Of a DNA stretch of 64,000 nucleotides, positions 1 to 51,300 are shown piece by piece (within the stretch, counting starts at the first letter, position 1; the number at the start of each line of letters is the position of its first letter). Under the pieces are notes generated by a model. That model was not told the origin of the DNA and searched no databases. It worked only from the letters and a program-made list of their open reading frames with translations. The DNA lies in contig CASDRH010000038.1 of the NCBI GenBank assembly GCA_949283075.1, forward strand, positions 44,483-108,482, read 5' to 3'. The position numbers and the translations under genes are program-made. This DNA comes from an uncultured Pseudomonadota bacterium. Its GTDB lineage: Bacteria; Pseudomonadota; Alphaproteobacteria; Rs-D84; CASDRH01.

Positions 1-782
1 TAAATATAACTACATATAACTTGTGTCGTATAAATATGTTTCTTCATGATATTAATTATAATAAATTTGATATCGCACTTGGAGATACATTGACAAATCC
101 GAAGCATTGGGATGATGAGCCTTTTGATGCTATAGTTTCAAATCCTCCGTATTCAATAAAGTGGGACGGAGATTCGAATCCTTTGTTAATAAATGACCCG
201 CGTTTTTCGCAAGCTGGTATTTTAGCTCCACGTAGTAAGGCAGACTTAGCATTTACGATGCATATATTGTCTTGGTTATCTGAATCAGGTACAGCAGCAA
301 TAGTTGAATTTCCAGGAGTATTATATCGTGGTGGAGCAGAACAAAAGATTCGTAAATATTTGATAGAAAATAATTTTATAGATACGGTAATACAATTACC
401 ACAAAATCTTTTCTTTGGAGTTAGTATTGCGACATGTATTATTGTATTAAAGAAATCTGCAAAGAAAGATAACAACATATTGTTTATAGATGGAAGTAAA
501 GAATTTATTCATTCTGGTAATAAAAATAAGTTATCAAACGATAATATTGACAAAATATTAGAAACTTATAGGAATAGATTACCAATAGAACATTTTGCTA
601 GCTTAATTCCGAATTCAAAAGTTATTGAAAATGATTGTAATTTATCAGTATCTTCATATGTAGAATCAAAAAATACAGAAGAAGAAATAGATATAAATAA
701 ATTGAACTTAGAAATTGCAGAAATTGTAAAAAGGCAATCAAAATTACGTGAGCAAATTGATGCTATAGTTGCAGAATTATAA
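1..782 (+). CDS. hsdM: Type I restriction-modification DNA methyltransferase subunit M; only the C-terminal part is in the window and the 5' end is truncated by the window edge
   Basis: The reading frame is open to position 1. An N6-adenine methyltransferase motif, SNPPYSIKW (NPPY), is present. The gene overlaps the start of the downstream specificity-subunit gene. Confidence 0.85.
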   Translation, partial: NITTYNLCRINMFLHDINYNKFDIALGDTLTNPKHWDDEPFDAIVSNPPYSIKWDGDSNPLLINDPRFSQAGILAPRSKADLAFTMHILSWLSESGTAAIVEFPGVLYRGGAEQKIRKYLIENNFIDTVIQLPQNLFFGVSIATCIIVLKKSAKKDNNILFIDGSKEFIHSGNKNKLSNDNIDKILETYRNRLPIEHFASLIPNSKVIENDCNLSVSSYVESKNTEEEIDINKLNLEIAEIVKRQSKLREQIDAIVAEL

Positions 783-801
783 AAAAGTAAGGATTAGTTT
801 T

Positions 802-1926
802 ATGTCCAAAATTGAAGAATTGATATCAAAATATTGCCCGAATGGTGTTGAGTATAAAGAATTAGGAATGGTATTAGATTATGAACAGCCATCTAAATAT
901 CTTGTTAATTCATCATATTATTGTAATGATGAAAATTTGATACCTGTTCTTACTGCTGGTCAAACTTTTATATTGGGATATACTGATGAAAAATATGGTA
1001 TATATAATGCAAGTAAAGATAATCCTGTAATAATATTTGATGATTTTACAACAGCATCACGTTGGATTGATTTTAATTTTAAAATTAAGTCATCTGCAAT
1101 AAAGTTGCTCACTCCGAAAATAGAATGTGTTTTTAAATATGTTTATTATGCTATGATGGAAATAAAAATTAATAATTTAGAACATTCTAGACAATGGATA
1201 TCTAAATATTCTAAAATTTTAATCCCACTGCCACCAATACCGGTTCAAGAAGAGATTGTTAAAATACTGGATTCTTTTACAGAACTAGAAGCAGAACTAG
1301 AAGCAGAACTAGAAGCAAGAAAAAAACAGTATGAGTATTATAAAAAACAATTATTATCTTTTAATAATGAATATAAAAATTTAAATCATATAAAATATAT
1401 GCCTATTATAGATTTAGCTCCAGTGTATAGAGGTAAACGACTTACAAAATCAGAATTAACTGCAGAGGGAAATTATCCTGTATATCACGGTGGTATTGAA
1501 CCATTAGGATATTATTATTCTAAAAATCGTGATGCTCATACTGTTATGATTATTAATGTAGGAGCATCTGCTGGAACAGTTGGATATAGTGATACTGATT
1601 TTTGGTCATCAGATGGTTGTTTTTGTATAGGTAAATCAGATCTGTTTATACCAAAATACTTATATTATGTTTTATCTTTGAAAGAAAAAGAATTTCGTTC
1701 TAAGGTTAGAAAAGCTGGTATTCCAACATTAGATAATTCTGTTGTTGAGAAAATTGTTGTTCCAATTCCTCCACTTGCTGAACAAGAACGGATTGTTGCA
1801 ATACTTGATAAATTTGATGCTCTGGTTAATGATATTTCTGTTGGATTACCTGCTGAAATTAATGCTCGTCGTAAGCAATATGAATATTGGCGGAATAAAT
1901 TATTAGACTTCAAAAAGGCTGAATGA
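802..1926 (+). CDS. hsdS: Type I R-M specificity subunit S with two target-recognition domains
   Basis: A conserved central repeat region (ELEAELEAELEARKKQYEYYKKQLL) and a C-terminal repeat region (INARRKQYEYWRNKLL) are typical of HsdS. An AAGGA SD precedes the ATG at 802. The gene sits between hsdM and hsdR. Confidence 0.8.
   Translation: MSKIEELISKYCPNGVEYKELGMVLDYEQPSKYLVNSSYYCNDENLIPVLTAGQTFILGYTDEKYGIYNASKDNPVIIFDDFTTASRWIDFNFKIKSSAIKLLTPKIECVFKYVYYAMMEIKINNLEHSRQWISKYSKILIPLPPIPVQEEIVKILDSFTELEAELEAELEARKKQYEYYKKQLLSFNNEYKNLNHIKYMPIIDLAPVYRGKRLTKSELTAEGNYPVYHGGIEPLGYYYSKNRDAHTVMIINVGASAGTVGYSDTDFWSSDGCFCIGKSDLFIPKYLYYVLSLKEKEFRSKVRKAGIPTLDNSVVEKIVVPIPPLAEQERIVAILDKFDALVNDISVGLPAEINARRKQYEYWRNKLLDFKKAE
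1282..1317 (+). repeat. Three perfect tandem copies of a 12-bp unit (GAACTAGAAGCA) encoding (ELEA)x3, in the central conserved region of hsdS
   Basis: Read directly from the sequence. The unit is in frame and perfect in all three copies. Confidence 0.9.
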
Positions 1927-3053
1927 TGGAAAAAAATTTTGAAACAATACAAGATCTTTTCAACTATGTTAAAAAAGATTTTGATGATTCAAATAGAAAA
2001 AATAAAGTTGCTTTAAGACTTATGTTTGCATCTAACACCTCTGGAAAAACGCGTTTGTCGGAGGCTTTTAGAGAAGAAGATAAACAAAATCTTGTAGAAG
2101 ATGATTCTTTAAGTAAGGTTTTATGTTATAACTCTTTCTTTGAAGATTATTTTCACTGGGATAATGAAAAATTTGTATTGAAGCTAGATAAATATTCTTG
2201 GATATCAAAATTTATAGAAGATGAGGGATTAGATGCTCAAATTATTGATAATTTCAAAAATATTACTAATTCTAAATTTAATATAGAATTTAATCAAGAC
2301 GGTGTTTGTTTTGGATATTATCTAGATGGTTATAACGAATTATCTACGATAAAAATTTCAAGAGCAGAAGAAAGTCAATTTATTTGGTGTGTCTTCTATA
2401 CAATTTTAAAAAGGGTAATAGAGTTATTATCAGAAAATAAGGAAAGCCGTTCAACAAATCTGTTTAATGAACTTAAATATATTATTATTGATGATCCAGT
2501 ATCTTCAATGGATGATAATAGGATAATAACACTCGCATTAGATTTAATACAATTAATTAAACAAATAAATATAAATAAACTTAATATATTGATAACAACT
2601 CATCATTGCTTGTTTTACAATATTTTGCATAGTAACTCTATTAAAGAATTTAGTATTAAGAGATCTGTATTAAAGAAAAAAGAAGATAATACACTATCTC
2701 TTGATATTCAAAATAAAGATTCTCCTTTTGCATATCATCTTATCTTATTGGAGGAAATAAAAAAAGCCGTTGATAGTGATAATATAAAAAAATATCATTG
2801 TAACTTTTTAAGAAGTATTTTAGAAAAAACTGCTAATTTTTTTGGATATAATGGTTGGCAGGATTTATTGCATGATAATGCTCTTCAGCATGAGTATATT
2901 GCAAAGCTGTTAAATAGTTATAGTCATAATAGTTTGGCAGAAATAGAATATAGTTCTTTGGAGTTATCTGAAAAAGAGATTTTTAAGAGAGAATTTAATA
3001 ATTTTTTTGAAAAGTTTCACTGGAAGGTTAAGGAGTCTAATGATAAAAATTGA
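1923..3053 (+). CDS. PrrC-like anticodon-nuclease candidate: an ABC-ATPase-like N-domain plus a C-terminal R-x3-E...H nuclease-like motif
   Basis: The N-terminal region has a Walker A-like ASNTSGKT and a Walker B/D-loop IIIDDPVSSMDD. The C-terminal region has LRSILE (R-x3-E) followed about 38 residues later by SYSHNS, resembling the PrrC catalytic R/E/H arrangement. The gene is inserted between hsdS and hsdR, as in the E. coli prr locus. Confidence 0.45.
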   Translation: MMEKNFETIQDLFNYVKKDFDDSNRKNKVALRLMFASNTSGKTRLSEAFREEDKQNLVEDDSLSKVLCYNSFFEDYFHWDNEKFVLKLDKYSWISKFIEDEGLDAQIIDNFKNITNSKFNIEFNQDGVCFGYYLDGYNELSTIKISRAEESQFIWCVFYTILKRVIELLSENKESRSTNLFNELKYIIIDDPVSSMDDNRIITLALDLIQLIKQININKLNILITTHHCLFYNILHSNSIKEFSIKRSVLKKKEDNTLSLDIQNKDSPFAYHLILLEEIKKAVDSDNIKKYHCNFLRSILEKTANFFGYNGWQDLLHDNALQHEYIAKLLNSYSHNSLAEIEYSSLELSEKEIFKREFNNFFEKFHWKVKESNDKN

Positions 3054-6000
3054 TAATATTTCTCAAAATACAAATAGTACTGTTGTAGCAGAATATAAAA
3101 ATGATGGTATTCGCTCAACTAATTATCAATCTGAAGCAGAATTGGAAAAAGAATTTATAAAGTTATTGCAATCGCAATCATATGAATATGTTCATATAAA
3201 AAGTAATGATGATTTAGTTAATAATCTAAGAGCTAAATTATCAGAACTTAATAATTACGAGTTTTCTAATTCTGAATGGAACAAGTTTTTTAATGATAAA
3301 ATTGCTAATAAAAACAATGGAATAGAAGAAAAAACTTCTCTTATCCAAGAAGATTTTATTCAGAATTTGGAAAGAGATAATGGCGAGATAAAAAATATTT
3401 ATTTAATTGATAAAGGAAATATACATAATAATAAATTACAGGTTATCAACCAATATGAAACAGACAATGGACAACGAAAAAATAGGTATGATGTAACTAT
3501 TTTAGTTAATGGTATACCTTTGGTACATATAGAATTAAAACGTCGTGGTGTTGATATAAAAGAAGCTTTTAATCAGATAAATAGATATAACCGTGAAAGT
3601 TTTTGGGCTGATAGTGGTTTGTTTGAATATGTGCAATTATTTGTTATTAGTAATGGAACTTATACAAAATATTACAGCAATACAACAAGAAACCAACATA
3701 TAAAGGAAGCGAAAAATAAAGCTTCTGTAAATATTAAAAAGACAAGTAATAGTTTTGAATTTACTTCTTGGTGGTCTGATGAGAAAAATAAACCTATAAC
3801 TGATTTGATGGATTTTACTAAAACTTTCTTTTCTAAGCATACTTTATTAAGTATTTTGACAAAGTATTGTGTTTTTACTGTTGATAAATTGTTATTAGTA
3901 ATGCGTCCTTATCAAATTGTTGCTACTGAAAAAATTATAAATAAAGTCCAAATTTCACATAATTATAAAAAATATGGTTCTATTGAAGCTGGTGGATATG
4001 TATGGCATACTACTGGTTCTGGTAAGACTTTGACAAGTTTTAAAACGTCGCAATTGGTTGCAAATTTTCCATTTATAAAAAAAGTAATGTTTGTTGTGGA
4101 TCGTAAGGATTTAGATTATCAAACTATGAAAGAATATGATAAATTTGAACAGGGGGCTGCTAATAGTAATACAAATACTGCTATTTTAAAACGTCAGTTA
4201 GAAGATACAAATGTAAAGATAATAATTACTACAATTCAGAAGCTTCATAGATTTATCAATAACAATGGAGATCATAAAATATTTAATGATGAAATTGTTT
4301 TTATTTTTGATGAATGTCATAGATCTCAATTTGGAGATATGCATAAAGCGATTACAAAAAGATTTAAAAAGTATTATTTATTTGGGTTTACAGGAACTCC
4401 TATATTTGCGAAGAATGCTTCTTCAGGAGGTGATATTAAACTAAAAACTACACAGCAAGCTTTTGGAAAGCAGTTGCATACTTATACAATTATTAATGCA
4501 ATTAGAGACAAAAATGTATTACCTTTTAAAGTTGATTATATTTCTACTTTGAGAGAGGCTGAAAATATATCAGATGAAAAAATATCTGATATTAATCGAG
4601 AAAAAATATTGATGGATCCAAAAAGAATTCATAATATTACTGGATATATTTTAGAACATTTTGATCAAAAAACAAAGCGTTCAGATAAAGCATATAATTT
4701 TAGTAAAGTAGATAATATAAAAGAAGTTGTTATTTCAAAAAATAAAGTAAAAGAATCAAAAAAACATGTCTATTTACTCGGTTTTAATTCTTTGTTTTGT
4801 GTTGCTAATATAGATATGGCAAAAGCTTATTATACTGAATTTAAAAAGCAAATGGAGCAATTACCACCTATTAATAGATTAAAAGTAGCTCTTATATACA
4901 GTTTTGGAGTAAATGAAGAAAACGGAATTATAGATGAAAATTCTGAAACAACAGAGGGGTTAGATCAATCTTCACGTGATTTTTTAGAAATTGCTATAAA
5001 GGATTATAATAAAATGTTTAATACAAATTATGATACATCCGCTGATAAATTTCAGAATTATTACAAAGATGTTTCTCTTAGGATGAAGAATAGAGAGATT
5101 GATTTATTAATAGTTGTTAATATGTTTTTGACAGGATTTGATGCTACTACATTAAATACATTATGGGTTGATAAATCGTTGCGTATGCATGGACTATTGC
5201 AAGCATTTTCACGTACAAATAGAATATTAAATTCAGTTAAAACTTATGGAAATATTGTTTGCTTTAGAAATCTTGAAAATATGACAAATGAAGCTTTAGC
5301 TTTATTTGGTGATGAAAATGCTGCTGGAGTTGTTTTATTAAAAACATTTAAAGAGTATTATTCAGATGGTTATAAAGATAAAAATGGGAAATATGTTCCA
5401 AGTTATATAGAGCTTATTCAACAATTACATGAAAAATTTCCAGCAGGAATTGTTATTGAAAGTGAAGAATGTAAAAAAGAATTTATTAAACTTTATAGTG
5501 TGATATTGAAATTAAAGAATATCTTAACTTCATTTGATGAATTTCAAGGAAATGAGATATTGTCTGATAGAGATTATCAAGATTATCACAGTATGTATAT
5601 AGAGCTTTATAATGAATATCGTAATTCAGTAGATAAGGAAAAAGAGGTAGTAAATGATGATATTGTTTTTGAAATGGAACTTATAAAGCAGATAAATATA
5701 AATATTGATTATATATTATCACTTATAAAAAAATATCATAGCTCTCATATGGAAGATAAAGAAATTTTAGTAAGTATATCTAAAGCAATTGATGCAAGTA
5801 TTGAATTACGAAATAAAAAAGATTTAATAATGGCATTTGTAGAAACAATTAATGCAAAAACTGATATAGAACAAGATTGGATTAGTTTTATATCAGAAAA
5901 TCGACAGAAAGAGTTAGATGAGATAATAGAAGATGAGAATTTAAATAAAGAACAAACATATAATTTTATGAAAAATGCTTTTTATAATGGTAATTTGTCA

Positions 6001-6150
6001 ACTGATGGTACAGAGATTGCTGATTTATTACCACCAGTATCTATTTTTGCTGATTCAGATGATAATATAACTGTAAAATTAAAAACTGTTATAAATAAGT
6101 TATTAAATTTCTTTGATAGATTCTTTAATATATCAGATAAAAATTTTTAA
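3040..6150 (+). CDS. hsdR: Type I restriction enzyme R subunit, an SF2 helicase-nuclease
   Basis: A Walker A-like TGSGKT (WHTTGSGKTLTSF) and a DECH box (FIFDECHRSQFG) are present. The length is about 1040 aa. An AAGGAG SD lies 8 nt upstream of the ATG at 3040. The longer ORF from 3007 overlaps the upstream gene. Confidence 0.9.
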   Translation: MIKIDNISQNTNSTVVAEYKNDGIRSTNYQSEAELEKEFIKLLQSQSYEYVHIKSNDDLVNNLRAKLSELNNYEFSNSEWNKFFNDKIANKNNGIEEKTSLIQEDFIQNLERDNGEIKNIYLIDKGNIHNNKLQVINQYETDNGQRKNRYDVTILVNGIPLVHIELKRRGVDIKEAFNQINRYNRESFWADSGLFEYVQLFVISNGTYTKYYSNTTRNQHIKEAKNKASVNIKKTSNSFEFTSWWSDEKNKPITDLMDFTKTFFSKHTLLSILTKYCVFTVDKLLLVMRPYQIVATEKIINKVQISHNYKKYGSIEAGGYVWHTTGSGKTLTSFKTSQLVANFPFIKKVMFVVDRKDLDYQTMKEYDKFEQGAANSNTNTAILKRQLEDTNVKIIITTIQKLHRFINNNGDHKIFNDEIVFIFDECHRSQFGDMHKAITKRFKKYYLFGFTGTPIFAKNASSGGDIKLKTTQQAFGKQLHTYTIINAIRDKNVLPFKVDYISTLREAENISDEKISDINREKILMDPKRIHNITGYILEHFDQKTKRSDKAYNFSKVDNIKEVVISKNKVKESKKHVYLLGFNSLFCVANIDMAKAYYTEFKKQMEQLPPINRLKVALIYSFGVNEENGIIDENSETTEGLDQSSRDFLEIAIKDYNKMFNTNYDTSADKFQNYYKDVSLRMKNREIDLLIVVNMFLTGFDATTLNTLWVDKSLRMHGLLQAFSRTNRILNSVKTYGNIVCFRNLENMTNEALALFGDENAAGVVLLKTFKEYYSDGYKDKNGKYVPSYIELIQQLHEKFPAGIVIESEECKKEFIKLYSVILKLKNILTSFDEFQGNEILSDRDYQDYHSMYIELYNEYRNSVDKEKEVVNDDIVFEMELIKQININIDYILSLIKKYHSSHMEDKEILVSISKAIDASIELRNKKDLIMAFVETINAKTDIEQDWISFISENRQKELDEIIEDENLNKEQTYNFMKNAFYNGNLSTDGTEIADLLPPVSIFADSDDNITVKLKTVINKLLNFFDRFFNISDKNF

Positions 6151-6191
6151 AATTAAATTTCATATTTTGAATAAAAATAAGGAGTATAGAT

Positions 6192-7310
6192 ATGAATGAA
6201 ATTAAAGAACCAAATATATTTAAATATGCAACATCTGAATTATCACAAGACGCTTTTTTATGTTGGTTAATAGAAAATGCAAAAAATGAGTATAAAGAAA
6301 CAGAATTGCATAAATTTGCAAAATTGTTTGTGTCAGAATTATTAGATAATAAAATATCAGAGTTTGAAATAAAAAATATTGAAAAGCAAGATAAAAAAAT
6401 TGATGTGTTTATTGATTTAGAAGATGATAAAGGTAATAAAATAGGAGTAATTATTGAAGATAAGACATCATCATATCTTCACGATGATCAAATATTGAGG
6501 TATGTAGAAAATAAAAAAAAGGAAGATTATAATAAAATATATGTTGTATATTTCAAATCAAGATTTATGTCAAAACAAGAAGAAAAAGATTTGGATAAAT
6601 ACAATGAAGAAAGAAATAAAGATAATTCTAATTATATATTTAATATTTTTAATAATGACAAAATTAATATATTTTTTAATGAAAATGGAAAAGGAATACA
6701 TTATTTATTAGATCAATGGATTTATAATTTTGATCAAAATTATAAAGAAATACAAAATACTATTGAGTATATAAAGAATAATAAATATGACTTTCATGAT
6801 AATTCTCAAAGAAAAGTGTTTTTAGATTATAGAGAAGTTTTTTTAGACTATATAGTTTCTGAAATTCAAAATGATGAAGAATTAAAAACAAAATATAAAG
6901 ATATACGGTGGTATATAACAGATCAAGCAAGGACTCCTCATATAGAAATATATACAAAAAATAAAGATATAAGACAGTATAAGATAGGAACAACTTTATA
7001 TATTATGTTTGATAAAAATGCTTATAATTTATCTATTAAACAACATATATTTACTAAAGATTACAAACGTATTAATGTAAGAAATAATGGATATAAAAAT
7101 GTTCCTTCAAAAGTTATAGAAGAAAAAGAAAAAATTGCTTTAAAGCTATCAAATGTTTGTGAATGGGATGAGCAAAATGATACTAATAAAAGATTAGTTA
7201 TATTTAAAAAAACTTTAAATCAAGAAATAAACGCTAATAATATAATTAACAGTTTAAAAGAAAATAAAGATATTGATAATATTATTCATACACTTGAAAG
7301 TATAGAGTGA
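6192..7310 (+). CDS. Lys-rich hypothetical protein with a PD-(D/E)xK nuclease-like motif
   Basis: The motif DVFIDLEDDKGNKIGVIIEDK (D...IIEDK) matches a PD-(D/E)xK core. The gene sits immediately after hsdR, next to the KAP NTPase. Confidence 0.3.
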   Translation: MNEIKEPNIFKYATSELSQDAFLCWLIENAKNEYKETELHKFAKLFVSELLDNKISEFEIKNIEKQDKKIDVFIDLEDDKGNKIGVIIEDKTSSYLHDDQILRYVENKKKEDYNKIYVVYFKSRFMSKQEEKDLDKYNEERNKDNSNYIFNIFNNDKINIFFNENGKGIHYLLDQWIYNFDQNYKEIQNTIEYIKNNKYDFHDNSQRKVFLDYREVFLDYIVSEIQNDEELKTKYKDIRWYITDQARTPHIEIYTKNKDIRQYKIGTTLYIMFDKNAYNLSIKQHIFTKDYKRINVRNNGYKNVPSKVIEEKEKIALKLSNVCEWDEQNDTNKRLVIFKKTLNQEINANNIINSLKENKDIDNIIHTLESIE

Positions 7311-7393
7311 TATTTAAATTTATTTCAAATATCTATTGTTTTTATTATTATTTGTTAATATCATGTCTGCTATATAACTAATTAGGATATGAT

Positions 7394-9724
7394 ATGAATT
7401 TTATTAAAAAATATTTAAACAAACCATTGTTATGTATAATTAGATTTATTAATCATATTGATAGTATTTATTTTAAAAATTACTATGTAAATCCTGATGA
7501 TATTTACCATATTATTAACAATAATTTAAATAATGAAGATATTTCATATAATGAACAATTAAAAGAATATATTTTAGTTAAATTAATTATCTTATTTAAA
7601 AGTACAATTAAAGTTTCATGTATAGTTGGACTTACTATTTTGATTTTGGGATTATTTAATCTTGTAAATTCTTATTCTTTTATATTTTTATTTGCTATAC
7701 TAATTATAGCCTTATACTGTTTTATTAAATATTTAAAATCTAAGTTAGATATATCTTTTAATAAATCAAAATGTTTTATGATAGAAGGACCATGGGGTAT
7801 AGGTAAAACATATACATTTAATACTAGAATAAAACCGGAATTAGCAAAACTTTTTAAAAATATATATTATGTATCTTTGTCTGGTTTGAAAACTCAAGAT
7901 GAAATCAGAGCTAAAATAATAAGTAAATATAAGATATTCAAAAACTATCACTTCATATTTTTCATATTAGGAGTGTCTTTTTTTATACTTTGGCTTTTTG
8001 CTTTTGTTAATACTAAAGATAGTTTAGCTTTATATAATCAATGTGATAATTGTTTAATTATATCTTTTAATTATTTTCCTAATTTTATATCTAATAAGAT
8101 AATAGAGTTATGGCCGTATATTGGAACTCTTATAAAAACACAATATTTAGAAAATATTATTCAAATAGTTCTATGGATAACAATTGGATATTGGGTATTA
8201 TGTTTACTTGGTTATAAATTTCTTATAAGTTTTATATCAAGCCTATCTAAAAAACACTTCGGTTTTGATATAGCTGATGAAAAATTAGATTTAACATTTA
8301 TAAATAATAAAGATACATTACTTGTATTTGATGATTTAGAAAGAGTTGCCGAAGATACAGATATAAAAAGCATACTAGGCTTTATTGGTAATTTAAAAGA
8401 GGTATATGGATTTAATATTATTTTAATCTGCAATGAAGAAGAGCTTAAAAAAGTATACGAAAGAGATAACTATCAAGTTGAGTTTATAAGTAAAAAAATA
8501 GATGGGCAAGAGGTGCAAATTCCTAAATATGATAAAAATAAGGATGTTAATAATAATTATAAAAGATATAAAGAAAAATTTGTTGATAAGACTTTATATA
8601 AAACTTTGGAATTTAGATTAAAAGTAAAAATATTTAAAGATAAATTTGATGAATATGGTGGGATTTTAATTCTAAAATTTGTAAAAAATATAGAGAATAC
8701 TATAATTTATTCATATGATAAATATGGTGAGAAAGAATATAAAGATGCATTTATAGATAAAATTAAAACAGATATTAGACTTTGGCAAAGAATTGTTGAT
8801 AATATTGATTATTTAATTCAGGAAACAAAGTTTTTTGAAAATATTATAGATGATTTAAAGTATGATAAAAATTGCAAATATTTTTATAATGAAAAAAATA
8901 ATACATATATTTTAGAAGAAGATTTAAAAGATATTGTAATATATATATTATTCTTTTCTGTTGAATATTCTTATGGATCACTTTTAGATTTTAAAGAATA
9001 TGTGATGTGTAGTTATGAATATGCTAAGTATAAAGATAATAAGAATTTAAATACCTTATATAAAGATCATAAGTACTATTTTTTATACAAAAAATTGTCT
9101 TTTATTGCTATAAATACTTCAAATATCTATATAGCAAATATGGCTTATAATTTAGTAATTGGCAAATTTGAAGATGTTAATGCAGATAAATTACTTCAAA
9201 ATAAGTCTGAAGTTTTATTAAGGTATATATTTAAACACTTAGTGTTGTCAAATATATTAGATGATAATAATAAAAAATATTTTATTAATAATTTTTCTGA
9301 AATATCAGAGTTTAGCGTGGATAATTGGGAAATAATCAAGGGATTTATACGTAATCATACATTTGATCAAAATGAAGAAGATAAATTTATAGATGAGTTT
9401 AAAAAATTAATAAAAAAATCTGATATATTTATGTTTTATAGATATTCTCCAAATTATTCTATAAATACAGATAATGAGTTTTTAAATAGAGTTTATAATA
9501 TTTGTTTAGAATATCTAAATAAAAATAGATTAATTAAAACAAAGGAATATTTTGATTCTTTATCTGAGACAAAAACAATAATTAAAAATGATATTATAGA
9601 TTTATTATTTTCTGAAGAATTTAAAACAGATGCTGAAGATTATGTAAAAAAATATCCTATAACTAATAAACAAATAATAGATTATTTAAAAAGTAATGAT
9701 GTTTTTAGGCATTTAAAGTCATAG
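7394..9724 (+). CDS. KAP-family P-loop NTPase with transmembrane segments inserted in the NTPase domain
   Basis: Walker A is EGPWGIGKTYTF. Walker B is LLVFDDLERV (the KAP hhhhDDLDR type). Hydrophobic helices lie before the Walker A motif and again between Walker A and Walker B. Confidence 0.65.
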   Translation: MNFIKKYLNKPLLCIIRFINHIDSIYFKNYYVNPDDIYHIINNNLNNEDISYNEQLKEYILVKLIILFKSTIKVSCIVGLTILILGLFNLVNSYSFIFLFAILIIALYCFIKYLKSKLDISFNKSKCFMIEGPWGIGKTYTFNTRIKPELAKLFKNIYYVSLSGLKTQDEIRAKIISKYKIFKNYHFIFFILGVSFFILWLFAFVNTKDSLALYNQCDNCLIISFNYFPNFISNKIIELWPYIGTLIKTQYLENIIQIVLWITIGYWVLCLLGYKFLISFISSLSKKHFGFDIADEKLDLTFINNKDTLLVFDDLERVAEDTDIKSILGFIGNLKEVYGFNIILICNEEELKKVYERDNYQVEFISKKIDGQEVQIPKYDKNKDVNNNYKRYKEKFVDKTLYKTLEFRLKVKIFKDKFDEYGGILILKFVKNIENTIIYSYDKYGEKEYKDAFIDKIKTDIRLWQRIVDNIDYLIQETKFFENIIDDLKYDKNCKYFYNEKNNTYILEEDLKDIVIYILFFSVEYSYGSLLDFKEYVMCSYEYAKYKDNKNLNTLYKDHKYYFLYKKLSFIAINTSNIYIANMAYNLVIGKFEDVNADKLLQNKSEVLLRYIFKHLVLSNILDDNNKKYFINNFSEISEFSVDNWEIIKGFIRNHTFDQNEEDKFIDEFKKLIKKSDIFMFYRYSPNYSINTDNEFLNRVYNICLEYLNKNRLIKTKEYFDSLSETKTIIKNDIIDLLFSEEFKTDAEDYVKKYPITNKQIIDYLKSNDVFRHLKS

Positions 9725-15761: not shown

Positions 15762-16310
15762 ATGTGTCTTAATAAATCTTGTCTTAAATGTGGATTATAT
15801 AATTATCAAAAACCTATATATGATGATGAAAAGTTGTCTGATATTATGTGGGTTGGATTGTCTGCTAAATTAATTAATAATGATTTTAAAGCTCCTTTGG
15901 ATTTGAATACTGCTTCTGGAAAAATTATTTCTGATATTGAAATGATGACTTCTGATTTTGTTCATTGTAAAACTAATTTAGTTAAATGTGCTCCTTTAAA
16001 TGATGCTGGTAAATTAAGATATCCTTTTAAATCAGAAATGGATTTTTGCTTTGATAACTTGATTTTAGAAGTTAATAATATAAAGCCTAAAATTATATTT
16101 TTGTTAGGTAAAATTGTATCTGATTTTATTTTATCGAAAAATGGATTTGATAAAATTGCTTTATCTGATAATTTTAAATATAAATCTGTGCAGATAAGTG
16201 ATATTTTATATTATCCTGTTCATCATCCTTCTTATATTTCTGTTTATAAAAAGAAATTTTGTAAGCAATATATTGATAGTATTGTTGATATTATTAAGTC
16301 TAATATTTAA
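15762..16310 (+). CDS. UDG-superfamily protein, family 4/5-like uracil-DNA glycosylase with a 4Fe-4S-type Cys pattern
   Basis: An N-terminal CLKCGL (CxxCxL) plus later Cys residues, IIFLLGK, and a C-terminal VHHPSY (the HPS motif) are present. The motif A position is degenerate (VGLSAK), which is family-5-like. Confidence 0.45.
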   Translation: MCLNKSCLKCGLYNYQKPIYDDEKLSDIMWVGLSAKLINNDFKAPLDLNTASGKIISDIEMMTSDFVHCKTNLVKCAPLNDAGKLRYPFKSEMDFCFDNLILEVNNIKPKIIFLLGKIVSDFILSKNGFDKIALSDNFKYKSVQISDILYYPVHHPSYISVYKKKFCKQYIDSIVDIIKSNI

Positions 16311-16348
16311 TCCTTTATAAATTTTGTTTAATATGTTTATAATTGCTT

Positions 16349-17854
16349 ATGATTATTGATTATAAAGTTTTTACAGATAGAAAAGCTAAATCAAGAGTAT
16401 TGTCTTATATTGCTTTATTGGACAGGGTTTTGTTATGGGAATTTTTTGAATCTGTAAAAAAATATAATGTTAAAGATTTTAAGTTGTCTAGTTTATGTAA
16501 TAAAGAGCAACAATTTAATAAGCTATTAAATGATTTTAATAAAAATCAGAATGTTAGAGATTTTAATTCATATCCTTTTGATTTATTTGGGACTGAGGCT
16601 TTTTTGCATTTCTTATCGAAGCAGATTCAAAATATAAAAAATGATTTTGTTCATTCTTTAAGGTGTAGGCTTTTTATAGATATTCCAGAAAAAGGCTTTC
16701 CAGATTTAAGGAATAAAATTGCTAATATTATGTTGTTAAGACATTATTTTATTCATAACGGCAATCCTCAAAATGGTAATATCGTTATTGATGATAAAGT
16801 TGTTTTAGAAAAGCTTGATATTGTAAAAGCGTTTATTATTTTGTTTGTATTTCTTCCTTATGATTATGCAAATGATATTTTTAATTGTATTAAAGCTTAT
16901 TGTGATAATCCTGATGAATTAAAAACAATATTAGATAAAATTGATAAAAATAAGAAATATGTTAAGGACGATGTTTTAAAAAGTAATCCTGATAATAATT
17001 TTCCAACTTATAAGGATTTATTGGAATCTGATGCTTCGTTAAATAAATTTTTTGAAAGCTATCCTTATATTAGCAGTAAGCGTTTATCTGTTAAGATTAT
17101 GGATAAAAATTTTATCGGAGATTATAATATTGGGCGTATTGAAGCTGTTTTTATGGATTTATATAAATGTAAAGCAGCGGAATTTGTTAAAAAGAAACGT
17201 AAAGATAAATTTTATATGGAACAAATAAAATCTGTTTTTTTCTTGTTCATTAAGATTATTGAAGTTATCCAAAGATATTTTATATTTGAATTTGAAAATG
17301 ATAAAGATAATACAAATAAAAATTATATCAATATAAGGAATGCTGTTTCTCATTCAGATATATTTTTTTATGGAGAAAATAAACAAAAATATCTTGATGA
17401 ATTTGATAAAAATATTAGGGATATTTTATCTTTTTTTGATGAAAAGAAGGATAGAAAATCTTTGAAAATAGAATTTTTAAAAAGTATGGATTCTTTGTTT
17501 GCAAAACGTAATAATTTTAAATTGAAAGTTGTATATGATAAAACGAAGGATAATCATAAAAATCAAATTGAATTATATGATGTTGATGTCAATTTTAATG
17601 AGTTTTTAAAACAAAATGATTTTTCTGATTTTAATAAGTATTCAAGAAAAAGTGTTAATAATAAAATAAAAGAAATTATAAATTCTATATTATCAAATGA
17701 TAATAAAAATAATAGGGTTCAAAGGAAAAATATAAGCTTGGTTAAGTATTCATATTTGTTGGATTTGAAAAAGGAATTGAGAAGAATTTTGAAAAAAGCA
17801 AAAGAGGATAATTATCAGCAATATAATTCTTGTTTTCAGAAAAAAATTGGATAA
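16349..17854 (+). CDS. Compact double-HEPN protein (two R-x4-H motifs) adjacent to a CRISPR-like array; candidate miniature Cas13-like (type VI-like) effector
   Basis: The first HEPN motif is LLRHYFIHNG (R133-x4-H138 in ORF numbering). The second is NIRNAVSHSD (R332-N-x3-H337, the RNxxxH form typical of Cas13 HEPN motifs). The C-terminal tail is Lys-rich. The array starts 88 bp downstream on the same strand. The ORF track start at 16343 is TTG; the first ATG is at 16349. Confidence 0.5.
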   Translation: MIIDYKVFTDRKAKSRVLSYIALLDRVLLWEFFESVKKYNVKDFKLSSLCNKEQQFNKLLNDFNKNQNVRDFNSYPFDLFGTEAFLHFLSKQIQNIKNDFVHSLRCRLFIDIPEKGFPDLRNKIANIMLLRHYFIHNGNPQNGNIVIDDKVVLEKLDIVKAFIILFVFLPYDYANDIFNCIKAYCDNPDELKTILDKIDKNKKYVKDDVLKSNPDNNFPTYKDLLESDASLNKFFESYPYISSKRLSVKIMDKNFIGDYNIGRIEAVFMDLYKCKAAEFVKKKRKDKFYMEQIKSVFFLFIKIIEVIQRYFIFEFENDKDNTNKNYINIRNAVSHSDIFFYGENKQKYLDEFDKNIRDILSFFDEKKDRKSLKIEFLKSMDSLFAKRNNFKLKVVYDKTKDNHKNQIELYDVDVNFNEFLKQNDFSDFNKYSRKSVNNKIKEIINSILSNDNKNNRVQRKNISLVKYSYLLDLKKELRRILKKAKEDNYQQYNSCFQKKIG

Positions 17855-17942
17855 AATCGATTCTAATTCAGGTTATTTTTTTGAAAATAATCTAAAGACT
17901 TTAGAGAATTATATTGCAAAAACACGCATTTACATAATGTGT

Positions 17943-18110
17943 GGGGAGCTTAGGCTCCCTTTTACGTGATATGATTCCTTCTTTATATTATTCTCATACA
18001 AATTTTTAGGGGAGCTTAGGCTCCCTTTTACGTGATATGATTCCGCATGAATATTCTAATGTTTCGAATTGTTCGGGGAGCTTAGGCTCCCTTTTATGTG
18101 ATATGATTCC
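17943..18110 (+). CRISPR. Mini CRISPR array of three 36-nt direct repeats and two 30-nt spacers
   Basis: The repeat is GGGGAGCTTAGGCTCCCTTTTACGTGATATGATTCC at 17943-17978, 18009-18044 and 18075-18110. The last copy has one C-to-T change. Spacers lie at 17979-18008 and 18045-18074, are unique, and are both exactly 30 nt. The repeat contains the palindrome GGGAGC-TTAG-GCTCCC. The period is 66 nt. Confidence 0.7.
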
Positions 18111-18157: not shown

Positions 18158-18643
18158 ATGTTGATTGGTTTTAATCCTGTTATTGATTTTAATTCTAAAA
18201 GAATTGTTATTGGTTCTATGCCTAGTATTGCTTCTTTAAATGCTCGGCAATATTATGATTTTCCTTATAATGCTTTTTGGAAAATTATTTCGGTATTGTT
18301 TAATTCTTCTAATCCATTTGATAATTATTCTGATAAAATTAATTGCTTGTTAAATAATCGTATCGCTTTATGGGATTCTTTAATGAAATGCAATAGAGTG
18401 GGGAGCTTGGATTCAAATATTACTAATGAAATTCCTAATGATTTTAATGCTTTGTTTGATGAATATAAAAATATTGATTTTTTGATTTTTAATGGGCAAC
18501 AAGCTTTTAAGTTTTTTAAAAAATACAATCCCGTTTTGTTAAAAAGATTCCCTTTCGCAATAATGCCTTCAACTAGTCCGGCTAATGCTTCTGTTGATTT
18601 TTTTGCAAAACTTGATGCTTGGAAAAAAGTGTTGCTGTTTTAA
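18158..18643 (+). CDS. UDG-superfamily DNA glycosylase (Mug/TDG-like or hypoxanthine-DNA-glycosylase-like)
   Basis: GSMPSIASLNARQYYDFPYNAFWKII aligns with Mug GINPG...NRFWKVI. The C-terminal MPSTSPANA matches the family's PS-S-N motif. Confidence 0.6.
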   Translation: MLIGFNPVIDFNSKRIVIGSMPSIASLNARQYYDFPYNAFWKIISVLFNSSNPFDNYSDKINCLLNNRIALWDSLMKCNRVGSLDSNITNEIPNDFNALFDEYKNIDFLIFNGQQAFKFFKKYNPVLLKRFPFAIMPSTSPANASVDFFAKLDAWKKVLLF

Positions 18644-34441: not shown

Positions 34442-34670
34442 TTTTTATTGTTATTTATGTTTTTTGTAAAGTATTATTTGATATTTATTTTTGCTTATAT
34501 TTTTTATTTATTTTTTGATTTGTTTTGTCAATTCTTTTTGTCAAAAAATGCTTGCGGTGATTTTTAATTTTTTGTATAATTCGTCTTATCTGGTTTTTAC
34601 TCAGAATTGTTAAAAGGAATTTTCCATAACATTTTTTGCGTTGGAAAGGGAATATAAAAAGGAAGGAAAA

Positions 34671-35417
34671 ATGAAAAAAGAAAATAATAAAAACTTATCT
34701 AAAAATAATAATGTAACAAATAAGGCTCAGGTTGCTTATTTCTTGTGGTTAGAAAAAGGTTGTCCAGAGAGTATGGAAGAAGCTGTTTATATGTCAGTTG
34801 CTGATCGTCAATGTCCAGCTGGCGTTGATAAAGCAATATGGGATAACGCAAAAGCTAGATTAGCAAAACGTGTTTATGAAATAGCTAATATTAAAAAAGC
34901 TGTTGCTAATGAAGATAAAGTTGAAACTTTGAAATCTGATGTTTCAGTTGATAAAAAAGCAGAAGTTAAGAAACCAGAAGCAAAGAAAGTTGTAAAAGCT
35001 GTTAAAAAAGCAAAAGCAGTTGCTAAAAAGGTTGAAAAGAAAGTTGAAGCTAAAAAAGCTGAAATTAAAGCTGTTGTAAAAGCAGAAGTTAAGAAACCAG
35101 AAGCAAAGAAAGTTGTAAAAGCTGTTAAAAAAGCAAAAGCAGTTGCTAAAAAGGTTGAAAAGAAAGTTGAAGCTAAAAAAGCTGAAGTAAAGAAGATTGC
35201 TGAAAAAGCTAAAGCTCCAGTTATTTCTATTGTTAAAAAAGAAGAAGTAAAAAAAGCTGTTAAATCTGTTAAAGCTAAATCCTCTTCATCTAAACCAGCG
35301 AAGAAAATCGTTAATAAGGTGAAGAAAAATGATCCGCTTACAGAAGCTTTGAATAAAGCAGAAAGCAAAATTGTTTCTATTACAAATCATAATTTGAAGA
35401 AAGTTGTAAATAAATAA
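34671..35417 (+). CDS. Histone H1-like Lys/Ala-rich repeat protein
   Basis: An AAGGAAGG SD precedes the ATG at 34671. The C-terminal two thirds is AKKVEKKVEAKKAE-type repeats. Confidence 0.55.
   Translation: MKKENNKNLSKNNNVTNKAQVAYFLWLEKGCPESMEEAVYMSVADRQCPAGVDKAIWDNAKARLAKRVYEIANIKKAVANEDKVETLKSDVSVDKKAEVKKPEAKKVVKAVKKAKAVAKKVEKKVEAKKAEIKAVVKAEVKKPEAKKVVKAVKKAKAVAKKVEKKVEAKKAEVKKIAEKAKAPVISIVKKEEVKKAVKSVKAKSSSSKPAKKIVNKVKKNDPLTEALNKAESKIVSITNHNLKKVVNK
34959..35204 (+). repeat. Perfect tandem duplication with a 123-nt (41-aa) period, of which about 105 nt are identical, inside the histone-like gene
   Basis: gcagaagttaagaaaccagaagcaaagaaagttgtaaaagctgttaaaaaagcaaaagcagttgctaaaaaggttgaaaagaaagttgaagctaaaaaagctgaa occurs twice, at 34959 and 35082. 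Confidence 0.85.
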
Positions 35418-48345: not shown

Positions 48346-51300
48346 ATGTTTTTAAGTTTAAAAAAAATATATTTGAATTTTATTAATACAAAATTTGGGC
48401 CTTATTTTATGATGTTAATCTTCGGATTGTTAGCATCATTGGCTTTGCCTCCTTTTCAATTTTATTTTATTTCTGCTTTAGGATTTATTTTTGCTTTTAT
48501 TTATATAAATAAAATTTCTTCAAAAAGACGTAGTGTTTTTTTGATGATGTTTTTTTATTTTGGATTTTTTATTTTATCTAGTTCGTGGTTATTACATTCT
48601 TTTATAAATAGTTTTACTATTTATATAAAAATTATGGGTTGGATTTCTTTTCTTGGATTTTTCTTTGCTTCTACTATTTATGCTTTGCCTTTTTTTATAT
48701 TACCTTTATTTAAAAATGTTTTTGGTAAAGCTTTAGGTTTTGCTGCTTTGTTTGCTATTTCAGAATGGATTAGGTCATTTATATTTGTTGGTTTTGGTTA
48801 TAATATGCTTGGTTCTATGTGGTATGATGTTTTACCTATTGTCCAGTCTGCTGCTTTGTATGGAGTTTATGGGTTAACTTTCTTTTCAGTTTTGTTGTTT
48901 TTATTACCTTATGTTTTGTTTTTCTATCGTAAATGTTTAAGTAGAATTATTATTCCCGTATTACTTTTATTTTCTTTTTATGCTTTTATCGTATCTTGGG
49001 GATTTTGGAGATTACATTTTGCAGAAGAATCTTTAAGAGAGGATTTTAAAGTTAGAATTATTCAACCTGATTTTCCTCCTGTTTATAAAGCTATAACAGA
49101 GCTTATTCAAAAGAATACTCAAAATTTAAGAGATTTAACTACTGTTAAACCTCTTGATAATATAGATATGGTTTTTTATCACGAAACTGCTTTTAGATAT
49201 TTTATTTCTAATTTTTATGAATACAGAATTAAGGAAGAATTAGATGGCTTAATACCTGAAAAAGGCTTCTTTGTTTCTGGAATGCCTAGATTAGAATATG
49301 TTTTTAATCAGAAAAAGCAGGATATTGATAAAATGCTTTATAATTCTGTTGTCGGTATTGATAGTAATTTTGAATTACAAACAAAGTATTTTAAACATAG
49401 ATTAGTTCCTTTTGGTGAATATATTCCACAATTTTTTAAGATGTTTTTACCTAGTGTTTTGACTGCTGGTGGTTCTTTTTCTTTTCCTGAAGATAATAAA
49501 AATTTATTGATTTTCCCTGATATTGTTAAATATCCTTCTATTTTGGCAACTATATGTAATGAAGATAATTATGCTGGTCAGCTTGCTGGTTTTGATATTA
49601 AGAAAAATGCTGATGTTATGTTGAATGTTGCTAATTTAGCTTGGTTTGGTGATAAGTTTGTTCAAAAACAAAATTTAGCTGTTGGTGTTTTAAGAGCTAT
49701 TGAAGAAGGTATGCCTTTTGTTCGTGTCATTAATAATGGTTATAGTTCTGTTATTAGTCCTTATGGTAAAATGATTTCTGGTGATGTTGTTGTGGTTGGA
49801 CATGATTATAAGACTATATTAGAAGAAAAAATTGATAATCATATTGGACCTTTCCAAATTGGAATTATGGATGTTAAAGTCCCTAATAGAATTAAGTATA
49901 CTTTATATTCTATGACTGGAAATTATTTGATTATTTCTTCTTTATTTATTCTTGTGATTTTATTATTGCTTTTTTCAAAAAAGGATTCTGTTTGTAAAAC
50001 TGATTTTGATACTAAATCTTTTAAAAATTGTGTTTTGAAAAATCGTGATGCTTCAAATAAATTTTTGTTTTGCTTTTTCCAAAGTTTAAAAGAATTTATT
50101 TTATTTAAATTTAATAAAAATAAATATTTGTTTATGAAATTATTTAATTACTTTGTTATTATGCTTTTTGGTATGTTTATGGTTTTGGCTACTCCGCCTT
50201 ATAACTTATTTTTTCCTGCTGTTGTTTCTATTATGGTTTTTTATTATTTTTATAGTGAAAAAACAGATTCAGCTTTGGATATTTATTTATTATCTTTTTC
50301 ATTTTTCTTTGGATATTTTTTAATTGGTTCTTTATGGCTTACTGGGCCGATGAGACTTGCAGGAGTCCATAATGCTTTTAATAGATATGCTTTATTATTT
50401 ACATTTTTAATTCCGTTTTTTGTTGCTTTTTTTACAAGTCTCCCTTTTATTTTTGCTAATAGAAAAAATCAGATTTGTAAATTATTGATTTTTGCTTTTG
50501 CTTTTGCTCTTGGAGAATTTATACGTTCTAGATCTGAAATATTAACAGGGTTCCCTTATATATATATTGGCGCAATTTGGATTCCTGTAAAGTCTGTTTT
50601 GCAATTTGCATCTTTATTTGGAATATATGGGTTAGCTTTTATTACCTCTTTAATTTTTGCTTTTCCAGTTTGGTTATTTGTTAATTTTAAAAGACTTTCT
50701 AAAAAAATATTGCTTTATGTTTCTGCTTTTGTATTGATGTTATTTTCTTTTATATTTTTATGGGGAATATTTAGAATTCCTGACAAAATTGAGTTTAATC
50801 AAAATTTGAATTTGAGGCTGGTTCAACCTATGAAAAGCCGTAGGTTAGATTTGTATGATATGCCTTATTTATTAAATGATTTTAATAAGGTAATTGATTT
50901 AGTTAATTTTGAAAAGGATGCTAAAACAAATCTTGTTATTTTAGCGGAAAATGTTGTTCCTTTTAATTATGCTAGTGATAGTTTACTTGCAGCTGATAAA
51001 GATAAGTTTGATTTATTGAAAAAAATTACTCCTGATAATTCTTATTTAATAATGGGATTTGTTGGTAAATATGTTAATGGTAGTTTGTTTTTTAATGATG
51101 CTACGGTTAAGCATTATAATATGATTGCTGTTTTTAATTCTGATGCAAAAATGATTATGGATTATAAAAAAGTTCACCTTGCTCCGCTTGGAGAGTATGT
51201 GCCAAAATATCTTGCTAATTTATTTCCAAGAAAGATTACAGCCGGTGATGCAGATATTATATCAGGAAAAGTTAGAAATGTTTTATTTAATTTTGAAGAT

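Follow-up and report, generated by a model that had tools for sequence, protein, structure and literature searches.

This locus raises the question of whether a protein of 501 amino acids (aa), together with the short array that follows its gene, makes up a complete RNA-targeting CRISPR system. The locus lies in a stretch of 64,000 nucleotides (nt), here called the window, taken from contig CASDRH010000038.1 of an uncultured alphaproteobacterium (assembly GCA_949283075.1, positions 44,483 to 108,482, forward strand). A sequence-only reading of the window had proposed a candidate miniature type VI, Cas13-like effector with its own array. This proposal is supported because the protein family has profile homology to Cas13an, its predicted folds match Cas13 effectors, all relatives on adequate contigs carry repeats downstream of the gene, and the spacers are completely replaced between strains. 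The locus is probably a Cas13an-like CRISPR-Cas locus of type VI in minimal form, with a small effector, its own array and no other cas genes nearby; a probability of roughly 0.8 is assigned to this interpretation.

The Effector Protein

The effector gene is an intact open reading frame (ORF) (Table 1). The double-HEPN ORF had been given as 503 aa. Its two HEPN motifs stand, and the length does not: 503 aa counts from a TTG at 16343, and the protein is 501 aa from the ATG at 16349. Database copies of the protein begin MIIDYK. The protein contains exactly two R-x4-H motifs, RHYFIH and RNAVSH. They are 199 residues apart and the second has the R-N-x-x-x-H form, as described in the sequence-only reading. 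The protein has 6 His and 21 Arg in total, and its C-terminus is Lys/Arg-rich, as was also noted. In the eight-sequence family alignment, a YPFDxFG motif and an F-x-G-x-x-N motif between the HEPN halves are invariant in addition to the catalytic residues.

Relationship to Cas13an

Cas13an was described in 2024 in Science. It comprises thirteen proteins of 429-577 aa. Ten are encoded beside arrays (36-nt repeats, 30-nt spacers), and cas1/cas2 and other cas genes are absent (PMC12165695). Two further Cas13an proteins, 32-50% identical to Cas13an2 and with a "classic hairpin" repeat, are reported in a 2025 preprint. The sequence-only reading had taken about 775 aa as the lower size limit of characterised Cas13 proteins and had likened the array geometry to that of Cas13b/bt-type loci. 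The size limit does not hold, given the biochemical characterisation of Cas13an in 2024 (PMC12165695), and Cas13an, which shares both size and array geometry with the window locus, is the more apt comparison.

The window protein is not linked to Cas13an by direct sequence searches. Searches of Pfam, NCBIfam, PADLOC and PDB sequences with the window protein gave no match. In a word-indexed search of 5.8 billion clusters, made with the single sequence and also with a profile, nothing came back beyond the protein's own 98% cluster. Seven proteins were found by an exhaustive phmmer search of 1.84 billion representatives, namely its own cluster and six relatives, which have 464-568 aa and 24-35% identity. 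The published Cas13an proteins are not among these seven matches. Pairwise BLASTP against the AT-rich orthologs Cas13an12 and Cas13an9 was not significant, and a degenerate-peptide scan of metagenome contigs found no further relatives. MDR2685633.1 and MCL2566713.1, two members of the family, are entered in NCBI nr under the name "hypothetical protein" and may therefore have come up in earlier surveys.

The profile comparison is congruent with a relationship to Cas13an. The Cas13an profile consisted of 12 published sequences (Table S3 of PMC12165695) and covered residues 1-400 only. The window protein alone matches this profile weakly (37% probability, E 3.5e-4), in a collinear alignment that keeps both catalytic motifs in register. 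The family profile, made from the window protein and its six relatives, matches it in hhalign with 98.4% probability (E 6.4e-15) over 307 collinear columns, bearing out the proposal in the profile search that had been suggested as a check. The match extends from the N-terminal helix through HEPN1 and the F-x-G-x-x-N motif to HEPN2. When the window species is left out the score is the same, and reversed-profile controls reach 0.3-0.7%. The nearest single Cas13an sequences are Cas13an4 and Cas13an8 (93% probability, E 3e-7). In the profile alignments, RNYLEH of Cas13an aligns with the HEPN1 motif RHYFIH, and IRNxIAHNGxFW of Cas13an aligns with the HEPN2 motif RNAVSH.

The window locus thus shares with Cas13an a chain of similar size with two HEPN motifs, homology at the profile level, and an array of 36-nt repeats and 30-nt spacers without other cas genes. 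It differs from Cas13an in lacking BLAST- or phmmer-level similarity, in its repeat, and in its hosts, which are low-GC, uncultured, gut-associated Alphaproteobacteria.

Predicted Fold

The AlphaFold model of the window protein has a mean predicted local distance difference test score (pLDDT) of 70 and a predicted template modelling score (pTM) of 0.76. The model of one relative, P0003, has a pLDDT of 78.5 and a pTM of 0.83. In fold searches with both models, the sole matches that align 228-293 residues are Cas13 effectors. Structure prediction had been suggested as a second check, and here two independent models match Cas13 over long stretches and do not match a single-HEPN toxin of the Abi/RnlA type. 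From the Cas13 structural alignments, the two catalytic motifs are predicted to lie close together in the fold. A mark of Cas13an is a rearranged order of the HEPN helices (N-2-3-4-1-C), present in both domains. Foldseek against the PDB gave nothing at E<=0.001, and a sequence search of the PDB found no Cas13an structure. Foldseek was likewise blank for the Cas13an proteins, according to their authors (PMC12165695).

Cas13b and Cas13bt (Cas13X/Y) of subtype VI-B were considered and rejected as a home for the window protein. VI-B effectors have at least 775 aa, with extra helical and lid domains, and their repeats form a whole-repeat GTTG...CAAC hairpin. In contrast, the window protein has 501 aa, it has no Cas13 match in PADLOC, NCBIfam or Pfam, and its repeat is of another form. 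The resemblance to VI-B is at the level of the fold only.

The Array and Its Repeat

The repeat GGGGAGCTTAGGCTCCCTTTTACGTGATATGATTCC is 36 nt long and occurs three times at a 66-nt period, with the first copy starting 88 nt past the stop codon. The three near-identical repeats, the two 30-nt spacers, the distance to the gene and the single-base change in the distal repeat are all as reported in the sequence-only reading. The number of matches to the repeat array expected in shuffled sequence is zero. As in CRISPR arrays generally, the repeats are constant, the spacers are unique, of fixed length and different between strains, and the repeat is not dispersed.

The hairpin seen in the repeat as GGGAGC/GCTCCC folds as GGGGAGC/GCUCCCU at -12.7 kcal/mol, with 7 bp at the 5' end of the repeat followed by a 19-nt unpaired tail. 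An Rfam scan of the array gave only sub-threshold matches to unrelated families. The sequence-only reading had named a dispersed repeat of the repetitive extragenic palindromic (REP) kind as the outcome that would overturn the proposal, and this outcome is not seen. No further copy of the repeat or of its hairpin core is present elsewhere in the window on either strand. Two public genome and metagenome collections gave zero matches to the repeat; the species is absent from both, so dispersal is judged on the window and on related contigs.

The window repeat is unlike that of Cas13an. The Cas13an repeats, as given by the cloning oligos of Data S2, form a whole-repeat hairpin of about 14 bp with a U-rich loop in a GTTG...GTGAC frame, at -17.7 to -19.6 kcal/mol. 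In contrast, the window repeat has a hairpin of 6-7 bp at its spacer-proximal end, a U-tract and an unpaired tail of roughly 15 nt, and lacks GTTG and GTGAC. The differing repeat and the lack of a sequence-level link mark the clade as a divergent variant of Cas13an rather than another ortholog.

Linkage of Gene and Repeats in Relatives

The contigs of all six relatives were examined for gene neighbourhood and downstream repeats. In every relative with enough contig, 36-nt repeats are present 60-250 nt downstream of the gene and on the same strand, and the period is 66 nt wherever there is more than one repeat. Two copies are present at L003 (AGGGAGGTAACTCCCTTTTTTAAGTGTTACTTTCCC) and at L005 (GGAGGGGCAACCCTCCATTCAGATGGTTACGTCACC), and three copies are present at L007 (GGGGGGCTAGCCCCCCATTTTTCATATAGATTTACC) and at L009 (GGAGGGCTTGCCCTCCATTTTTATGGTGTCTATAGC), with at least one 30-nt spacer in each of these four loci. 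The contigs of L004 and L008 break off within the first repeat, and that of L006 stops 25 nt past the stop codon. The relatives come from human-gut (Hadza), termite-gut-type and other metagenomes.

The neighbourhoods of the relatives are mutually unrelated and contain ABC transporters, an AAA ATPase, a helix-turn-helix protein, ankyrin-repeat proteins or RNA polymerase. An orphan array beside an unrelated toxin is ruled out, as the gene and the repeats travel together through at least five unrelated genomic contexts. This also disposes of the alternative offered in the sequence-only reading, a HEPN toxin co-opted next to such an array.

The repeats are built to a common plan, with a 6-bp GC stem and tetraloop, (A)UUUU, and about 15 nt of tail, usually with CC at the end. 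In the alignment of six repeats, 97% of stem cells are paired and compensatory double changes are present at 5/6 pairs. The observed level was reached in 0/500 shuffles, and slid controls gave at most one pair. Such covariation argues strongly for an RNA hairpin that is conserved and co-evolves with the protein.

Some relatives depart from this pattern. At L005, the homologue of P0004 (5001-6705) is apparently split by a frameshift, and an overlapping ORF at 6397-6705 encodes the conserved C-terminal helix KITWLNLIRTQMHGELLQIRRENKKK. The split gene is either a pseudogene or an assembly error. In the human-gut lineage, the five strains L051-L055 (P0002 relatives) have a single degenerate repeat after the gene and no spacer. 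L003, of the P0002 lineage, has this same degenerate repeat, together with one full repeat and one spacer. On 12 contigs of the human-gut lineage, the protein is a truncated form of 308 aa, P0015. Array collapse and gene decay appear to have taken place in this lineage. Some lineages are evidently losing the system, and the species of the window keeps an intact gene and arrays that turn over.

Spacer Turnover Between Strains

The 90% cluster of the window protein has eight members on different contigs, and five loci of the species were read (the window, L001, L045, L047 and L049). Across these five strains, the effector gene differs by 1-12 nt of 1,506 (99.2-99.9% identity), and each has an intact ORF. 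In the downstream flank, 2/40 positions differ. The arrays differ in length and content: the 2 spacers of the window are also those of L045, and there are 3 in L047, 4 in L001 and 5 in L049. These make four array types with 14 spacers of 29-30 nt, none of which is common to different arrays. The replacement of spacers between near-identical strains points to continuing spacer gain and loss. A REP element and a set of tandem terminators were both ruled out as explanations of the repeats, by the hypervariable spacers of fixed length and by the family-wide linkage to the gene.

The same spacers bear on a further explanation, in which the protein is an AbiF-like HEPN toxin restrained by an antitoxin RNA derived from the repeats, in the manner of a type III toxin-antitoxin system, and the spacers have no guide function. 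The AbiD/F systems have one HEPN domain per chain and act as a homodimer of a protein of about 300 aa, and the conserved abiF non-coding RNA (RF03085) lies upstream of the gene and has no variable spacers. In contrast, the window protein has two HEPN domains in one chain, its RNA elements are downstream of the gene, and the array has no match to RF03085 at E values up to 10. Antitoxin repeats also need no hypervariable inserts of fixed 29-30-nt length, such as the 14 found here among strains that are 99.2-99.9% identical. Membership in the AbiD/F systems was rejected on these grounds, and a toxin of this type is extremely unlikely.

Putative Leader and Polarity

The segment between the gene and the first repeat is a putative leader. 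It contains a promoter-like TTGAAA-17-GAGAAT at 17881-17909, which is a consensus match only and is at the background frequency for AT-rich DNA: the window has 19 promoter-like matches and 19.8 are expected for DNA of 25% GC. An alignment of the leaders of six loci is noisy, and no conserved promoter can be defined from it. In five of the six (window, L003, L004, L005, L007 and L009), a T-run and then a TTATGT[GC]T-like motif precede the first repeat, with the form TTATATTGC in the window. At L009, this motif resembles the 3' tail of the L009 repeat itself. The motif may be a promoter, a relic half-repeat or a chance match, and the alignment is too noisy to tell these apart.

The degenerate repeat is gene-distal throughout (window, L049, L003, L005 and L007). 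In L003, L005 and L007, it has lost its 3' half. The window array and the L049 array are otherwise different but both end in the C-to-T variant repeat, and this marks the gene-distal end as the old, trailer end. The placement of the leader beside the gene in the sequence-only reading is supported by these repeats. The array and the gene are co-oriented in all loci examined. On the + strand, T exceeds A in 11/14 spacers and 12/14 are pyrimidine-rich; T exceeds A in 41% of sense-strand 30-mers of host genes (P=0.0045 for the excess in spacers). This composition is as expected of guides antisense to mRNAs. Transcription of the + strand from a gene-proximal leader, giving guides with the spacer before the repeat, is therefore favoured by the position of the degenerate repeat, the co-orientation and the spacer composition, and we infer it on that basis.

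The opposite polarity was weighed against this. The array would then be transcribed from the - strand, and each CRISPR RNA (crRNA) would have a 5' handle, made of the tail complement and the hairpin, followed by the spacer, as in Cas13a/c/d and Cas12a. The hairpin lies at the extreme end of the repeat and abuts the spacer, so the - strand gives a handle-hairpin-spacer layout, and on that strand no U-tract follows the hairpin to terminate transcription. The published ortholog Cas13an9 was also cloned in repeat-then-spacer order (Data S2). However, the degenerate terminal repeat is always gene-distal, which puts the leader beside the gene, the array is co-oriented with the gene everywhere, and guides from the - strand would be mostly sense to purine-rich mRNAs, given the T-rich spacers of the + strand. 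The stem also gains a G-U closing pair on the + strand (-12.7 vs -10.9 kcal/mol), and the characterised Cas13an crRNAs are spacer-first (PMC12165695). The opposite polarity is unlikely.

A different use of the repeat would make each copy its own expression signal. The 3' tail, GTGATATGAT or TGATATGAT, resembles an extended -10 element and would start transcription a few nt into the next spacer, and the next hairpin and U-tract would end it, giving unit-length guides without nuclease processing. Repeat-borne promoters in the type II-C arrays of Neisseria are an analogue. TGnTATGAT stands at the 3' end of the repeat in the window, and the corresponding position in L003 has TGnTACTTT. Most repeats of the family conserve a GC hairpin with 4-6 T after it (L005 has ATTCA instead), and the terminal repeats keep the hairpin and U-tract and lose the tail, the part without a following spacer. 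With a start about 7 nt past the -10, about 26 nt of the spacer would remain, and mature Cas13an guides, at 23-24 nt, come close to this (PMC12165695). Against this, the -10-like hexamer is poor or absent in L005, L007 and L009, that is, in 3/5 complete family repeats, and promoter-like matches in the window do not exceed the background given above. The HEPN site of Cas13an processes its own precursor crRNA (pre-crRNA), so such a device is unneeded (PMC12165695). Repeats that act as promoters are improbable.

Genomic Setting

The window has a GC content of about 25%. Its housekeeping genes include rpoD, valS, serS, argS, gatA/B, miaB, lnt and lpxA. The window GatB is 49-62% identical to that of metagenome-assembled genomes from rumen, termite guts and other animal guts that bear the label Alphaproteobacteria or Holosporaceae.

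The effector gene and the array sit exactly between two genes of the uracil-DNA glycosylase (UDG) family (Table 1), in a repair cluster that also contains PNPOx, HhH-GPD, MGMT, AP endonuclease 2 and NrdR. The gene and array look like an insertion into a UDG pair. The sequence-only reading had placed the locus in a DNA-repair cluster, which stands, and had called this an atypical site for a defence island; however, a type I restriction-modification island with an embedded PrrC anticodon nuclease lies only 6.6 kb upstream.

Table 1. Positions of the features of the effector locus and of its neighbourhood in the window
Feature	Position	Strand	Remarks
Effector gene, divergent Cas13an-like double-HEPN protein, 501 aa	16349-17854	+	Intact ORF, ATG 16349 to stop 17854
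HEPN1 catalytic motif RHYFIH, residues 131-136	16739-16756	+	R131 and H136 invariant in 8/8 family sequences
HEPN2 catalytic motif RNAVSH, residues 330-335	17336-17353	+	R330 and H335 invariant in the family
Putative leader, gene to first repeat	17855-17942	+	60 nt before first repeat identical in all five strains despite differing arrays
CRISPR repeat 1, 36 nt	17943-17978	+	7-bp hairpin at 17943-17960, U-tract, 3' tail
Spacer 1, TTCTTTATATTATTCTCATACAAATTTTTA, 30 nt	17979-18008	+	Unique in window; common only to strain L045 (same array); not in L001, L047 or L049 arrays
CRISPR repeat 2, 36 nt	18009-18044	+	
Spacer 2, GCATGAATATTCTAATGTTTCGAATTGTTC, 30 nt	18045-18074	+	
Terminal repeat 3	18075-18110	+	One C-to-T change at 18097; same variant closes L049 array
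UDG-family gene upstream of effector	15762-16310	+	
UDG-family gene downstream of array	18158-18643	+	Weak UDG match
Defence island, type I restriction-modification with embedded PrrC anticodon nuclease	21-9724	+	Ends 6.6 kb upstream of effector gene
hsdM, C-terminal part	21-782	+	
hsdS	769-1926	+	
prrC	1923-3053	+	PADLOC PrrC, E 7e-94
hsdR	3007-6150	+	
ORF without matches	6192-7310	+	
ORF of 776 aa, candidate system PDC-S49	7394-9724	+	E 9e-18

Two other ORFs of the window are of note. The Lnt N-terminal domain and the CN-hydrolase domain are each matched by two stretches of an ORF of 1,177 aa (48346-51879, + strand). Apolipoprotein N-acyltransferase is usually about half this length, and the ORF may encode a tandem-fused double Lnt. 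A Lys/Ala-rich ORF of 258 aa (34641-35417, + strand) contains a perfect 123-nt tandem duplication at 34955-35186 (1.9 copies, 100% identity) and further periodicities of 15-42 nt. It may encode a histone-like or other basic DNA-binding protein.

Weighing the Cas13an-like Interpretation

Several observations weigh against a Cas13an-like system at this locus. The repeat is unlike the canonical Cas13an form, in which a 14-bp hairpin takes up the whole repeat (GTTG...UUUU loop...GTGAC). The hairpin and U-tract, read on the + strand, resemble a weak intrinsic terminator; a terminator scan flags only the variant third repeat. The confidence of the AlphaFold models is only moderate, and in the human-gut lineage (P0002 relatives) the array is reduced to one degenerate repeat.

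A scan of the larger ORFs of the window found none that is Cas1-like, and no cas1/cas2 was seen there, in agreement with the sequence-only reading. Acquisition must therefore take place in trans, through an integrase encoded elsewhere, or by another route. The same gap was remarked on for Cas13an, for which borrowing from type II systems was suggested (PMC12165695).

BLAST of the 14 spacers against 50,697 phage records gave chance-level matches only (E>=0.9), and no protospacer was found there. IMG/VR contains zero exact matches to eight 20-mers taken from spacers (six of this species, two of relatives). No self-target was found in the window, where the best match has 6 mismatches. The spacer search that had been suggested as a check therefore lends nothing to the proposal, and RNA targeting and the type of target are without support from spacer matches.

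The within-species ratio of non-synonymous to synonymous polymorphism (pN/pS) is about 1 (0.5-1.9), with most differences non-synonymous. There are only 8-12 substitutions, too few to separate relaxed from diversifying selection, and the ratio carries little weight.

Some of these observations would also fit a decaying or inactive remnant, that is, a real Cas13an-type locus that has lost its role in immunity in this organism. The arrays are very short (2-5 spacers), pN/pS is near 1, no adaptation genes are nearby, the L005 gene is split by a frameshift, and the human-gut lineage has one degenerate repeat and the 308-aa truncated variant on 12 contigs. However, all five strains have an intact ORF, and the catalytic residues do not vary in a family at 24-35% identity. 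The full replacement of spacers between strains that are 8-12 nt apart in 1.5 kb requires ongoing acquisition, and the pN/pS estimate comes from about 10 substitutions. A remnant is very improbable, and a Cas13an-like locus with its own array is preferred.

Proposed Mechanism and Position Among Type VI Systems

In Cas13an, the spacer lies 5' of the repeat in the crRNA, and a single HEPN site both trims the pre-crRNA inside the spacer and cleaves the target RNA. Cas13an guards E. coli against diverse phages (PMC12165695). Transcription strand, crRNA layout, processing, RNA targeting and immunity are proposed for the window locus by analogy with this system. The array would be transcribed on the + strand from the gene-proximal leader, as suggested by the homology with Cas13an. 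Each guide would consist of a spacer and then a repeat, in which the 6-7-bp GC hairpin would be the protein-binding handle. R131/H136 and R330/H335, from the two HEPN domains of one polypeptide, would form a single composite RNase site, and this site would trim the pre-crRNA. The 30-nt spacer would pair with a complementary transcript of an invader, and the target RNA would be cut, probably along with bystander RNA. The fast replacement of spacers would be supplied by an integrase encoded elsewhere or by another insertion route.

The effector of subtype VI-E, Cas13e, is described in the 2025 classification as "by far the smallest" Cas13 (PMC12669027). In secondary descriptions of a 2025 paper in Cell, Cas13e is an intermediate between AbiF and the larger Cas13 proteins, and its crRNA both guides and restrains the enzyme (PMC12669027, PMC12737573). 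As far as these secondary descriptions of Cas13e go, the window clade may lie inside VI-E, form a sister branch to it, or do neither.

The principle of a miniature Cas13 was itself already known from 2024-2025. The novelty lies in a deep, rare branch whose repeat is built differently, and in clean natural evidence that spacers turn over fast. Neither this branch nor its repeat was found described in the miniature-Cas13 literature, in which Cas13e was compared by secondary description only. A stronger proposal would treat the clade as a miniature type VI branch at the level of a subtype, confined to uncultured low-GC gut Alphaproteobacteria, with a hairpin scaffold of about 16 nt, repeats that may double as promoter and terminator (giving autonomous spacer units and guides without nuclease processing), and rapid spacer renewal without linked adaptation genes. 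This whole proposal is distinctly unlikely.

If the system is active, the known range of the smallest RNA-guided RNases would be widened by the 501-aa enzyme and its relatives, a branch that sequence searches do not connect with the published ones. Its guide handle may be far shorter than the 36-nt whole-repeat hairpin of Cas13an. This difference bears on compact RNA-targeting tools and also on the change in guide RNA from AbiF-type toxins to Cas13. The full turnover of spacers among strains that are 99% identical, with no cas1/cas2 seen in 64 kb, is also a clean natural case for the study of spacer acquisition by orphan type VI arrays.

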